From sequence record OQ555404.1: a stretch of 64,000 bases of DNA; one strand, 5' to 3'. The stretch is from Escherichia phage vB_EcoP_HC-25922. Each line of letters begins with the position of its first letter. The stretch's first letter is position 1. The notes under the pieces are model-generated. The model saw only the letters and a list, made by a program, of their open reading frames with translations, was not told the origin of the DNA and did no database searches. The position numbers and the translations under genes were made by a program. This document shows positions 34,391 to 46,456 of the stretch, one piece after another.

Positions 34391-34415
34391 ACGAAAAAAG
34401 CCACCCGAAGGTGGC
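34391..34415 (-). terminator. hairpin terminator (agccacc-uucg-gguggcu plus U6)
   Basis: On the - strand: U-run after a GC hairpin with UUCG loop; one of three near-identical copies. Confidence 0.5.
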
Positions 34416-34439
34416 TAAGCTATTACAAGGAGAGATTCA

Positions 34440-35180
34440 TTAGAAAGGGCTGTCATCTTCTTCAAAGGTAGACTGCGGCTCTTCGTTAATAGTAGGGATA
34501 CTTGGAGTAGCATCTTTCTGTTCAGTATCAGAAGCTTTAGTAACTTCACGACCAGCCAGAGGGATGTTCTTAGCATCATTAGCTTGGGTCAGAAGATTAC
34601 GTTGGAATGGGAAGATTGCTTGATAAGCAGCCAAGTTAGCATCAGTCTCAGCATACGGTTCGAAGAAGATCAACTCACTACGAGGGGCACCTACAGCATC
34701 ACGATATTTGGTAGGGATTGGAGTGATACTCTTAATGGAGTTTTTCTTCTCACCAGCTTTGTTTACATAGGAATTAACCAGAATGTTAACAGGCTGACCT
34801 AGCAGCATATCTTTAAACCAACCCAAATCACCTTTCAGTGCTTGAACACTTGGGTCGATCATTTTGATCAGATTCAGAATACCAGAGTTCTTAGCTCGTG
34901 GGTTTACGTCGAAAGTTTTAAACTGGCAAGCAGGACGAGGGTCCAGAGGTTTGCCTTCATTATCAGTCCCTGTTGCATCCACGCCAATCAGTTCAAAAGC
35001 CAAGTCCATACGGAAAGCTGGGTTCTTAGGAGTAACTGCTTTAGTCTTAGGGTCAATCCAAGGGTCACGATTGTGAACACCTAAACCTACAACACGAACA
35101 ATACGTGCTTCGTACTCACCATCAGGGATTACATCGTAGTTGGATTTACGGGATACAGACAGTTCAGGGATCATAGACAT
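34440..35180 (-). CDS. single-stranded DNA-binding protein (putative)
   Basis: 246 aa with acidic C-terminal tail FEEDDSPF resembling the SSB tip DDDIPF; AAGGAAA RBS. Confidence 0.5.
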   Translation of the reverse strand: MSMIPELSVSRKSNYDVIPDGEYEARIVRVVGLGVHNRDPWIDPKTKAVTPKNPAFRMDLAFELIGVDATGTDNEGKPLDPRPACQFKTFDVNPRAKNSGILNLIKMIDPSVQALKGDLGWFKDMLLGQPVNILVNSYVNKAGEKKNSIKSITPIPTKYRDAVGAPRSELIFFEPYAETDANLAAYQAIFPFQRNLLTQANDAKNIPLAGREVTKASDTEQKDATPSIPTINEEPQSTFEEDDSPF

Positions 35181-35598
35181 ATTAATATTTCCTTATATAA
35201 ATTTAAGATTGTTGCTCTCTTTGAGCGGTTTGTATACTATATACATTACACTTATACAGATAAGGTTCTATTATACTATAACCTTTTTGGTAGTAGATAA
35301 TAACAAATAGTAATGTATATATATGGTATAGCTAGTAAAGCTATTGCAGGCTTGTATATTGGGCAATTCATAGAATCCCTTGCAAGTACCGAAGGGCAGG
35401 AGCCACCTGCGAGATAAAAATAGAGAATTAAGGAAATCCTTGATTTAGGTTGTAGGGACTCCTAGGGACTTTGATTCTCTATTTAAAAGAATATTAATTA
35501 CTTACTACCTAAATAATTAACTAACTTACTTAAACCAAACTCAAGAATAATAGATAAAAAGATTATTCCTAAGAAAGCTAAAAAGTAAAGGATATAAG
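35181..35598 (-). promoter_or_regulatory. 418-bp AT-rich non-coding region with repeats and palindromes (candidate promoter cluster or origin)
   Basis: No ORF on either strand; TATACTATA twice (35233, 35273), TAGGGACT twice (35451-35470), palindrome CTTGCAAG, hairpin GCAGG-agcca-CCTGC. Confidence 0.35.
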
Positions 35599-35763
35599 TT
35601 ACCATTCAAGTAAACCTTTAAAGTTAGTTTGTTCTACTATCCTCTGATAATGAAGATTAGAATCAGCTTGTTTCTTTAACATCTCATTATATTTATCTCT
35701 GATAGAGTCTTTATAAACTACAGGTTCTTTAAATAATGAGATCTTGTTCTTTTCTTCTTTCAT
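35599..35763 (-). CDS. hypothetical small protein
   Basis: ATG 35763 with AGGAAGG RBS; 54 aa. Confidence 0.3.
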   Translation of the reverse strand: MKEEKNKISLFKEPVVYKDSIRDKYNEMLKKQADSNLHYQRIVEQTNFKGLLEW

Positions 35764-38367: not shown

Positions 38368-38679
38368 CTACTTCTCCACCACAAAGAGGTTAACTTCAAT
38401 GAAAGTTTCGTATTGTGTTGACTCCTGCTTACGGGTGTAGTAGAAATGACGACCTTCTAATGCACCTCCGTACTGAGTGGCACATCTTTTAACCATCTCT
38501 TTTATCACATCTACAACTGATTCGCCTTTCCACGGACGTAACCCCTGAGTTGGGACTTTTGCTGTACAGGTTACTTGTGTGTAACCTACATCTTGTAGAG
38601 ATATCTCAAGAATCAGCTTTGCCCAAGCATCAAAATTAAGCTTGGGGTTATATTTAACTTCAGTTTTGATATCAATCAT
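38368..38679 (-). CDS. hypothetical protein
   Basis: 103-aa ORF immediately downstream of the polymerase gene. Confidence 0.45.
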   Translation of the reverse strand: MIDIKTEVKYNPKLNFDAWAKLILEISLQDVGYTQVTCTAKVPTQGLRPWKGESVVDVIKEMVKRCATQYGGALEGRHFYYTRKQESTQYETFIEVNLFVVEK

Positions 38680-40526
38680 TAGTGAGTATGATTCCAGTTT
38701 AATCCAATCTTACAATCTGATGCAAGAGGACATTCCATCTTGAGGTATTCCCCTGCTTTACGAACACATTCTTCAGTGAGGGTACGAAGTTTGTTAACAT
38801 CATCACGATGTACAGTGAACTGTCCTTCATCATGCATGTCAATAACCTTCGCACAACGAACACCATCCCGCTCAATCCATTTATTGAGGAATAGCATTGC
38901 ATACTTCATAACAATCGCCCCAGCGCTCTGTAAGAGTGTATTTAAGGCTTTATGGACCATAACCTTTCCAGTTGCATCTCTTCTCATTGTAATACGACGT
39001 CCATCCACACCGTAGATATATCCACTTTGCGCTTTCTCTGTCATACGTTCAATAAGGATTGCAATACAAGGGTTCTCTGCTAAGAATCTTGCTCTCATGA
39101 TAGCCCCTTCGTCAGAGCCACCACCTACAATACTTCCTAACTTAGCGTCACCTGCCCCATAGTTAAAGGCATAGATAAACGTTTTAGCATTATCACGAGT
39201 AGGAAGGCCAGCAAGTTTTTGGTTATGTGAGTGAATATCTCCTTCTAAAAGAATATCTCTATACATAACAGCAGAAGCTAGACCACGTTCAGCTTCTCGT
39301 TTCTTAGCCGGGTTGTTTTCTCGCTCTGCTTCAGCGAGCATCTCACGACATTCTTTAATAAGGTAGTGAGCTAGCATCCTCAGCTCAAGACCAGAGCCAT
39401 CGTAACCTAAGAAGATTTCACGACCAGCAGGAACATAGAACTTATAGGCACCTACGGGTTTGTCTTTCTTGCCCGGTTTTCCCACTTCGTAGATAATGTT
39501 AGTACCCTTTCGTACGTAACACCCATCAGGGATATGGTTGGTAATGATGAAAGGATGGTTATGACTATCGTCTGAGGAATAGTCAGATTGAAAAAGACTG
39601 CGGCACTCGTGACCAAACAAACCGCGAGAAGGAATATTAACAACAATGCGATGTTTAAAACGAAATGTCGGAGTAGCGCAGCTATTAGCTTCGGCGGACA
39701 ACTTACCATCTTTACGTTCCTTGTCGATAAGCCCGCTAATCAAACCTAGCCTGTGAGCCGCTACAACGCGTCTCTTAAGCAAACTTCCTACACCCCCTAG
39801 CTCACCCCCAAGCCCCTCTTCAAGAGTCTCCTCAAGGTTTGTAGGGGCTGTGGGCCACTTGTTTGATGTAGCCAAAGCTTTTTTGATTTCATCAAAGGTT
39901 ACAGGTTTCTTCCTATTCGGATTAAGACCTAAACCACTGACGTAGGCTTTCATGTAGTTGACAGTGTGATAACGGAAATGTTTATCCAAAAATCTTCGGA
40001 TATCAGCATCTATCATCTCCGCTGTCTGTTTCTCTTTAGCATTACCTCGAATCCAAGCAGAATACCATGCAGAGTATGTACCATACTTCTTCATAGCTCT
40101 ACGGATTTCAAATGTATTCCAAGGTTTCTTAGAATAATTCCACTCTGGAGGTATGAAGCCCTCATCCATCAAGGCTTCTTTAATACGTGCATCTTTCGAT
40201 GGGTCGAAGTCTACATACTCAACGCAAGTAAACGCCCCACCGATATCTTCTCTTTTAAGACCAACCCTATCGCAATAGAGCTGAGGCCACTTCTGTAAAG
40301 CACCTGATTTCTTAAAAGGCTTAGCATAAGTTGAACCATCCACCCGCATTTTAGGGAGGAGAGGAATCAGTTCTTTATCAATATTGACAATAATCTCTTT
40401 GAGAAGGTGAACAAACCACCGAGCGTTTCTTCTGTTGAAGTTGACTCCATGCTTCGCTTGTTTTGAGATTATATCAGCGACTGTCATCTCCGTTATGAAA
40501 GGTAACTTATCAGGGTTATCCATCAC
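38679..40526 (-). CDS. DNA polymerase, family A (Pol I-like) polymerase domain only
   Basis: Motif A DGSGLELRMLAHY, motif B RDNAKTFIYAFNYGAG, motif C HDEGQF; no exonuclease motifs in the N-terminal region. Confidence 0.85.
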   Translation of the reverse strand: MMDNPDKLPFITEMTVADIISKQAKHGVNFNRRNARWFVHLLKEIIVNIDKELIPLLPKMRVDGSTYAKPFKKSGALQKWPQLYCDRVGLKREDIGGAFTCVEYVDFDPSKDARIKEALMDEGFIPPEWNYSKKPWNTFEIRRAMKKYGTYSAWYSAWIRGNAKEKQTAEMIDADIRRFLDKHFRYHTVNYMKAYVSGLGLNPNRKKPVTFDEIKKALATSNKWPTAPTNLEETLEEGLGGELGGVGSLLKRRVVAAHRLGLISGLIDKERKDGKLSAEANSCATPTFRFKHRIVVNIPSRGLFGHECRSLFQSDYSSDDSHNHPFIITNHIPDGCYVRKGTNIIYEVGKPGKKDKPVGAYKFYVPAGREIFLGYDGSGLELRMLAHYLIKECREMLAEAERENNPAKKREAERGLASAVMYRDILLEGDIHSHNQKLAGLPTRDNAKTFIYAFNYGAGDAKLGSIVGGGSDEGAIMRARFLAENPCIAILIERMTEKAQSGYIYGVDGRRITMRRDATGKVMVHKALNTLLQSAGAIVMKYAMLFLNKWIERDGVRCAKVIDMHDEGQFTVHRDDVNKLRTLTEECVRKAGEYLKMECPLASDCKIGLNWNHTH

Positions 40527-46073: not shown

Positions 46074-46404
46074 CCCCTTCTAAGTTAGTTGAATTAGCTA
46101 CATTACGAGCAATGTTATCCATGACCTGCTGTGTAATAACAATACAATTCTGAGGGTCTACTGATTTAGAACGCCCCATCTCAGGGTCATAGACTTTGAC
46201 TCGCTTGGCTGTTGAGCCAGTAACTTGCAACACTTTGAGAAGATAGCCTTGGTTTCCAATAGACCATGCAACAACATCACGATTCTTGATATAACGACCA
46301 AGCATGTCACGATGATAGAACTGCTGCATAACTTTAGCTTTGCTAATCTCTTCAGATGGCGGGGCCACTTTACTCAAATCTAACATAACTCTCTCCTGTT
46401 TCAT
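46057..46404 (-). CDS. hypothetical protein
   Basis: 115-aa ORF. Confidence 0.45.
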   Translation of the reverse strand: MKQERVMLDLSKVAPPSEEISKAKVMQQFYHRDMLGRYIKNRDVVAWSIGNQGYLLKVLQVTGSTAKRVKVYDPEMGRSKSVDPQNCIVITQQVMDNIARNVANSTNLEGDAPNA

Positions 46405-46456
46405 ACAATATTCTTATACTGTATATACATTTGAGAGTTATCATATCTACTACCAA

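Follow-up and report, generated by a model that had tools for sequence, protein, structure and literature searches.

A candidate antisense gp36 promoter and a conserved, predicted non-coding RNA in the gap upstream of gene 40 of a phiEco32-like phage

Genomic context of the gap

The analysed window, a stretch of 64,000 nucleotides, belongs by sequence similarity to a phiEco32-like podophage. Over the 1.9 kb around the gap considered here, identity is 99% to Escherichia phage vB_EcoP_SU7, and about 100 phiEco32-like podophages of the subfamily Gordonclarkvirinae match at 88-98%. Up to 30.6 kb the genes (late, structural) are read on the plus strand, and from there to the window end they are read on the minus strand. 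The gap is intergenic between the homologues of phi32_41 and phi32_40, and 98 phage records each carry a single copy of the region, with identities of 80-99%. The flanking genes and the known promoter motif are the following:

34440-35180, minus strand: homologue of gene 40, 246 aa, SSB-like, served by the promoter P40
35248-35240, minus strand: -10-like 9-mer of P40, an exact TAATGTATA, invariant in 19 aligned relatives
35498-35605, minus strand: homologue of phi32_41, a hydrophobic 35-aa ORF (phrog_24970 match, E 4e-23) that bounds the element described below

A preliminary description of this DNA regarded positions 35181-35598 as its largest non-coding gap, AT-rich and free of open reading frames on both strands. 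On the coding strand, the 418 bp are indeed the longest ORF-free interval at a threshold of 50 aa, and the GC content of the gap is 29% compared with 42% for the window. The absence of ORFs holds at the same threshold but not below it, where the 35-aa ORF is found. This ORF is conserved and is annotated in several relatives; consequently, the true non-coding gap is 317 bp (35181-35497). The product of the ORF is probably a small membrane protein. In TH34, Bas87, XT32, Paul and ECBP2 the ORF is absent or replaced, and the conserved 3' domain described below remains there. In the annotation of SU7 (L001, 8278-9898), a homing endonuclease gene interrupts that of the DNA polymerase (SU7_49 to SU7_51), and at the matching place the window carries one ORF of 615 aa (38679-40526, minus strand).

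The gap had also drawn attention through direct repeats, palindromes and a hairpin. All of these motifs are located where they were reported: TATACTATA at 35233 and 35272, TAGGGACT at 35453 and 35463, CTTGCAAG at 35379, and the hairpin GCAGG(35396)-agcca-CCTGC(35406). Short repeats and palindromes are, however, not above chance for the composition of the gap. In 500 dinucleotide shuffles, repeated 8-mers are at least as frequent as in the gap in a fraction of 0.56 and repeated 9-mers in 0.40; for palindromes of 8 bp the fraction is 0.35, and for hairpins of 5 bp it is 0.38. The 10-bp inverted repeats alone are more frequent than chance predicts (0.008), an example being AATAGAGAAT at 35419 with ATTCTCTATT at 35474. 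The notable property of the region is its conservation across relatives and not the listed motifs. Among the latter, relatives do not keep the second TATACTATA or CTTGCAAG; the two TAGGGACT copies and the GCAGG hairpin are located inside the conserved 3' domain. The first TATACTATA overlaps the sequence immediately downstream of the P40 9-mer.

The published promoter P40 and gene 40

In phiEco32, the middle promoters and the late ones are read by the host RNA polymerase with the phage sigma factor gp36, and share the element tAATGTAtA located 6-8 nt upstream of the start (PMC4331800; PMC8948821; PMC4281155). Six such promoters have been published, before genes 6, 13, 26, 40, 58 and 68 (PMC4331800; PMC8948821 Table S3; PMC4281155). 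The one before gene 40, P40, is a gp36-dependent middle promoter in the phi32_41/phi32_40 intergenic region (PMC4331800; PMC8948821 Table S3). The window carries a counterpart of every one of the six, at 1660+, 9430+, 26119+, 35240-, 41814- and 46424-. P40, which is already published, thus corresponds to the TAATGTATA at 35248-35240 on the minus strand. Based on the numbering of P68, its start is predicted near 35233, so that the 5' UTR up to the ATG at 35180 would measure about 52 nt. The suggestion that the gap is a main early or middle promoter and operator region thus stands as far as a middle promoter is concerned; it is not an early promoter, and an operator lacks support. A scan of the gap for sigma-70 promoters and terminators gives nothing meaningful.

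The product of gene 40 has no sequence-family match and no sequence match in the PDB. An AlphaFold model (34 homologues, pLDDT 83) predicts an OB fold followed by a disordered acidic tail ending in EEDDSPF, and on this model the designation SSB-like is reasonable. Just downstream of gene 40, a canonical intrinsic terminator is located at 34399-34416 on the minus strand (AGCCACC-TTCG-GGTGGCT followed by TTTTTT), the sole consensus terminator within 2 kb.

A seventh gp36 promoter motif on the opposite strand

In addition to the six published sites, the window contains a seventh exact TAATGTATA, on the plus strand and pointing away from gene 40. The corresponding putative promoter, referred to here as Panti, is antisense to every gene in that half of the genome and has no ORF downstream. 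Its two elements are:

35289-35299, plus strand: -35 element of Panti, GGTAGTAGATA, at -37 to -27, the exact 11-mer found in P68
35311-35319, plus strand: -10-like 9-mer of Panti, TAATGTATA, at -15 to -7, an exact match

The 64-kb window holds two exact copies of GGTAGTAGATA, one in Panti and the other in P68 (46454-46444, minus strand), where the number of matches expected is 0.92 even with one mismatch allowed. In both promoters it is placed 11 nt upstream of the 9-mer (seven sites in register). The -35 element of P68 is identical in phiEco32 and ES17.

P68 is a middle promoter activated by gp79. The contacts that gp36 makes with P68 are known from a cryo-EM structure of the open complex of RNA polymerase, gp36 and gp79. 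The N-terminal domain of gp36 reads -14A, -13A, -12T and -11G, and its C-terminal domain contacts the -35 region through -37G and -34A, both of which are essential (PMC12276001). Mutations in the -10 region of P68 compromise transcription, while those in the -35 region abolish it (PMC12276001). In Panti, GGTAGTAGATA places G at -37 and A at -34, as in the published contacts.

The comparison with relatives is based on 26 distinct homologous sequences taken from GenBank phages, IMG/VR, metagenomes and Logan assemblies. The six contacted bases of Panti (-37G, -34A and AATG at -14 to -11) are kept together in 25 of the 26; GGTAGT is invariant in all 26, and the AATG of the 9-mer is present in 25. 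The 16 bases that separate GGTAGT from the 9-mer, in contrast, drift freely. Such a pattern, in which both contacted elements are kept while the intervening bases change, is the one expected of a promoter under selection. In the Logan clade, the 9-mer reads TAATGAATA with the contacted AATG retained, and the -35 element is 1 nt nearer to it. In the metagenome contig L031, the 9-mer is TAATATATA, with -11G changed to A. Taken together, the sequence features make it very probable that Panti functions as a gp36 promoter.

Between P68 and Panti, the -35 element GGTAGTAGATA, the 11-nt spacer and all six contacted bases are the same, and the 9-mers match (tAATGTATA against aAATGTATA). Unlike P68, Panti is antisense to the gene cluster, has a conserved non-coding structure downstream and does not appear in the published list. 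With the P40 of phiEco32 it shares the intergenic region and an identical 9-mer. In contrast to Panti, the P40 of the present phage has tAGAAC in place of GGTAGT in its -35 region, and serves a protein gene.

The six promoters of the published list (PMC8948821 Table S3) do not include the motif. Published promoter searches were confined to the strand of the downstream gene (PMC4331800), which may be the reason why Panti is missing. Panti is apparently unreported, and the known part of the gap is P40.

Two kinds of -35 region seem to exist among gp36 promoters. P68 (46424-46454, minus strand) and Panti have GGTAGTAGATA, and the late promoters P13 (9405-9438, plus strand) and P26 (26094-26127, plus strand) have AAGACCTA at -37 to -30. 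P40 (35248-35273, minus strand) has tAGAACCT at -37 to -30, and A at -34 is common to all of these promoters.

The predicted transcript: 5' hairpin and middle segment

Transcription from Panti would start at G35326, the 7th nt after the 9-mer, and give an RNA of about 160 nt (approximately 35326-35487, plus strand). Three parts can be distinguished in it:

35328-35344, plus strand: 5'-terminal hairpin, ATAGCT, loop AGTAA, AGCTAT, with compensatory changes among relatives
35345-35388, plus strand: variable middle segment, variant A, with CTTGCAAG
35389-35487, plus strand: conserved 3' domain, 99 nt, with two predicted hairpins

The 5' hairpin covaries. It has 5-6 bp and exists among relatives in eight distinct versions, including ATAGCT/AGCTAT, ATAGCT/AGTTAT, ATAGTT/AACTAT, ATAGA/TCTAT, AGAGTT/AACTCT and ACATC/GATGT. 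Changes on both sides occur in four of the six pairs. The proportion of paired cells is 95.8%, compared with 73% in shuffles, and the covariation score is 0.655 versus 0.184, a value reached by none of 500 shuffles. When the partner column is slid as a control, the score does not exceed 0.10. In most relatives, across both clades and with unrelated stems, the hairpin begins exactly at the predicted +1, that is, the 7th nt after the 9-mer. The window has an extra TA, and its hairpin begins at the 9th nt, 2 nt downstream of the +1.

The middle segment is variable. Four unrelated versions of 45-75 nt are found among relatives, none of which folds significantly better than shuffled sequences (z from -1.5 to +0.1). 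A long-range helix that would close this segment, UUGCAGG/CCUGCGA, was considered and dropped because it is kept in variant A only. There is no conserved ORF in the region of the predicted RNA, as short plus-strand ORFs are broken by indels and variant swaps in relatives.

The conserved 3' domain

In phages with 75-84% identity to the window in their gene 40 DNA, the 3' domain is 92-99% identical, and on this comparison it appears to be under strong purifying selection. It persists where the 35-aa ORF is lost, as well as where a 47-aa ORF has entered the stretch separating the two promoters. R1, a covariance model built on the domain, finds one copy in the window, with 123 bits. Its predicted structure consists of two elements. 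In the short hairpin GCAGG(35396)/CCTGC(35406), the sole variable base is located in the loop. The long stem pairs 35422-35433 with 35469-35480, can be extended to 35419/35483, and closes an irregular hairpin that encloses AAGGAAATCCTT and both TAGGGACT repeats (35453, 35463).

The covariation across relatives raised in the preliminary description is found in one part of the RNA only. It is present in the 5' hairpin, whereas in the 3' domain none of the 23 predicted pairs shows changes on both sides, because the sequence hardly varies. Since no pair is backed by compensation, the fold of the domain is a prediction only.

The two TAGGGACT copies (35453-35470, plus strand) are jointly changed to AGGACT in six of the 26 distinct sequences, and one copy is never changed alone. 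The joint change is scattered over different clades and middle-segment variants, and none of the tested explanations accounts for it. The possibility of a CsrB-like RNA acting as a CsrA sponge was also considered. The domain has five A(N)GGA motifs against 3.05 in dinucleotide shuffles, 19% of which reach five; the count is thus not enriched, and this candidate was rejected.

Strand of the transcript and the minus-strand alternative

Four independent signals favour the plus strand. The first is a G.U pair in the common phiEco32-type 5' hairpin; read from the minus strand, this pair would become an A.C mismatch. The second is the presence in the 3' stem of two invariant G.U pairs and of one A-U pair that becomes G.U in XT32. 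The third is folding energy: the 3' domain reaches -23.1 kcal/mol (z -3.4) on the plus strand and -14.6 kcal/mol (z -2.1) on the minus strand, a difference of 8.5 kcal/mol. The fourth is GC skew. The skew of the 3' domain is +0.21, in comparison with -0.10 +/- 0.13 in the surrounding minus-strand genes (top 0.6% of windows in the region of minus-strand genes), and G-richness marks the sense strand in this phage.

These signals bear directly on an alternative in which the 3' domain acts mainly on the minus strand. It would then be an unusual terminator, an attenuator or an RNase III-type processing hairpin that parts the P58-driven operon from gene 40, and Panti would provide antisense transcription or interference only, with no discrete small RNA. 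In T7, long irregular intergenic hairpins are processing sites, which counts in its favour. The position of the element coincides exactly with the 3' end of the gene set upstream, a consensus scan finds no other terminator from P58 to gene 40, and on the minus strand the hairpin is followed by an invariant UUUUUAUCU. The tract there, UUUUUAU, is a better U-tract than the mere 3-4 U that follow the long stem on the plus strand, but the minus-strand stem is weak and AU-rich. In its layout, with an A-tract upstream and a U-tract downstream of the hairpin and a similar appearance on both strands, the element resembles intrinsic bidirectional terminators. It differs from them in having an AU-rich stem and an interior of about 45 nt, and the consensus scan (GC-rich stem, loop of 3-8 nt, U-tract) finds no canonical intrinsic terminator in the gap on either strand. 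Moreover, on the minus strand the fold is much weaker and two A.C mismatches replace the G.U pairs, the 5' hairpin pair and the skew point to the opposite strand, and about 65 invariant internal bases are not needed by a terminator. In ES17-type phages, a minus-strand ORF follows downstream of the element and precedes P40, which speaks against efficient minus-strand termination there. As the main role of the domain, a minus-strand function is consequently considered unlikely, although a role in attenuation or processing on that strand may coexist with the RNA.

Distribution among relatives and recombination

The element appears to be a single-copy feature limited to the Gordonclarkvirinae and a few close unclassified relatives, because R1 finds no match in more distant phages. 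There is none near the gene 40 homologues of the Grimontviridae (7-11, GAP52, J3S, BUCT695, PKM.Lu.22.1, 009), where just 75-100 bp are present upstream of the gene. The same holds for relatives whose gp40 identity is 61-65%, with up to 150 bp upstream of gene 40. Pattern scans of IMG/VR and metagenomes return close relatives only. In the Logan contigs L039-L041 (about 2356-2500; gp40 identity 61-65%), a different region of 145 bp is found upstream of gene 40, rich in AGCTAAGCTAAGCTA repeats and hairpins; the 3' domain model does not match it, and TAATGTATA is absent from it.

Searches for known RNA classes are likewise negative. Rfam gives no match with E up to 10 in positions 35181-35598 of the window and none with E up to 1 in four other variants, and ARAGORN detects neither tRNA nor tmRNA genes. 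In 5,426 E. coli genomes, BLAST finds nothing similar to the element. As for targets in trans, no complementarity of at least 13 nt is found in the rest of the window, and 11-12-mers occur at chance level.

Within the group, the sub-modules of the locus (hairpin type, middle variant and repeat type) are found in mixed combinations among phages, which indicates that recombination is frequent there. Such exchange may inflate the apparent conservation and add to the uniformity of the domain. In ES17-type phages (L017, 701-1256; metagenome loci L031-L035), the two promoters are separated by an additional insert of about 145 bp, which carries the 47-aa minus-strand ORF ES17_37; P40 of these phages also has GGTAGT at -37.

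Proposed explanation and remaining alternatives

The explanation proposed here is that the gap holds a back-to-back pair of gp36 promoters about 60 bp apart, P40 on the minus strand and Panti on the plus strand. P40 would drive the SSB-like gene 40 in the middle phase. Panti, a promoter of the P68 type composed of GGTAGTAGATA, an 11-nt spacer and TAATGTATA, would fire in the opposite direction in vivo and produce a discrete RNA, structured and non-coding, of about 160 nt (~35326-35487, plus strand). This RNA would begin with the 5' hairpin, at +1 in most relatives and at +3 here, continue through the exchangeable middle segment, and end at the long hairpin of the 99-nt 3' domain, which comprises the short GC hairpin and the long irregular one. 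The product may be a middle-phase regulatory or protein-binding small RNA whose 5' and 3' hairpins protect its ends. On the minus strand, the same long hairpin with UUUUUAU may also weaken transcription that runs on into gene 40 from the operon upstream. Of the roles that had been suggested for the gap, a small structured RNA is thus the one favoured, in view of the divergent gp36 promoter, the covarying 5' hairpin and the almost invariant 99-nt domain. Judged from sequence, the whole picture, with P40 and Panti back to back and Panti making a discrete functional small RNA, is probable.

A replication origin was another role that had been suggested for the gap. In its most plausible form, the Panti transcript would serve as a primer or R-loop beside AT-rich flanks, in the vicinity of replication genes. 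The primary origin of T7 consists of the phi1.1A/B promoters and an AT-rich region, and oriF and oriG of T4 consist of a middle promoter and an unwinding element. The present locus resembles these in that a phage-specific promoter adjoins AT-rich DNA (23% GC on both sides) in a neighbourhood of T7-like replication genes, including primase/helicase and Pol A. In addition, the transcript is G-rich, which favours RNA-DNA hybrids, and its expression would be middle-phase. Unlike the T7 and T4 origins, however, the DNA directly downstream of the start is structured and, with 40% GC, the most GC-rich part of the gap, not an unwinding element. The cumulative GC skew has no inflection at 35.3 kb and only follows gene orientation, the iteron-like repeats amount to two 8-bp direct repeats, no initiator gene is evident, and covariation that keeps an RNA hairpin at +1 is not expected of an R-loop primer. 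The suggestion of an origin is therefore not supported, and a transcription-primed one is very unlikely.

Finally, it is highly improbable that the element acts at the DNA level with Panti silent, either as a group of sites bound by proteins (the palindromes and the TAGGGACT pair at 10-bp spacing, whose copies switch to AGGACT together and never singly) or as a recombination linker kept uniform by frequent exchange, as the mixed sub-modules and the varying flanking gene content might suggest: in a silent motif, the six gp36-contacted bases would not be the very ones retained while the spacer drifts, the six compensating hairpin versions, of which one has a strand-specific G.U pair, are more in keeping with RNA than with an operator, and recombination reshuffles variation but does not remove it.

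Implications and comparison with known phage RNAs

phiEco32 is a model for the takeover of host RNA polymerase by a phage through its own sigma factor. Its reported promoter set comprises three middle and three late promoters, all of which are located before genes, and Panti would be the seventh. If the proposed promoter pair and small RNA are confirmed, a non-coding layer would be added to the gp36/gp79 transcription programme, which would also make a dedicated RNA from a promoter facing away from genes. The system would further offer a simple handle on phage small RNAs, with one promoter, one RNA and about 100 sequenced relatives. For the engineering of therapeutic Kuravirus phages, the gap looks like a convenient insertion site, but is probably not neutral.

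A broader claim can be put forward only tentatively and is rather doubtful. According to it, all Gordonclarkvirinae and some unclassified relatives encode an unseen, phage-sigma-dependent small RNA of about 160 nt, the 99-nt core of which is constrained beyond essential replication genes by a sequence-specific job central to infection. Such a job might be the capture of a host or phage protein or RNA, or the priming or licensing of DNA replication.

Small RNAs of virulent phages include the band C and D RNAs of T4 and those mapped in Pseudomonas phages. The RNA predicted here would be similar to them in being short, structured and non-coding, transcribed from a phage promoter, equipped with protective hairpins and conserved within a lineage. 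It would differ in its dependence on a phage sigma factor, in having no kinship in Rfam or in sequence, and in not being tRNA-like. The extreme conservation of the 99-nt block is also unusual in comparison with known small RNAs of virulent phages.

A short hairpin close to the start may not be confined to the Panti transcript. By eye, the P68 transcript (46384-46423, minus strand) also seems to start with one, a few nt past +1. In phiEco32 (L051), this apparent hairpin reads GTACAA..TTGTAT, which resembles the Panti arrangement.
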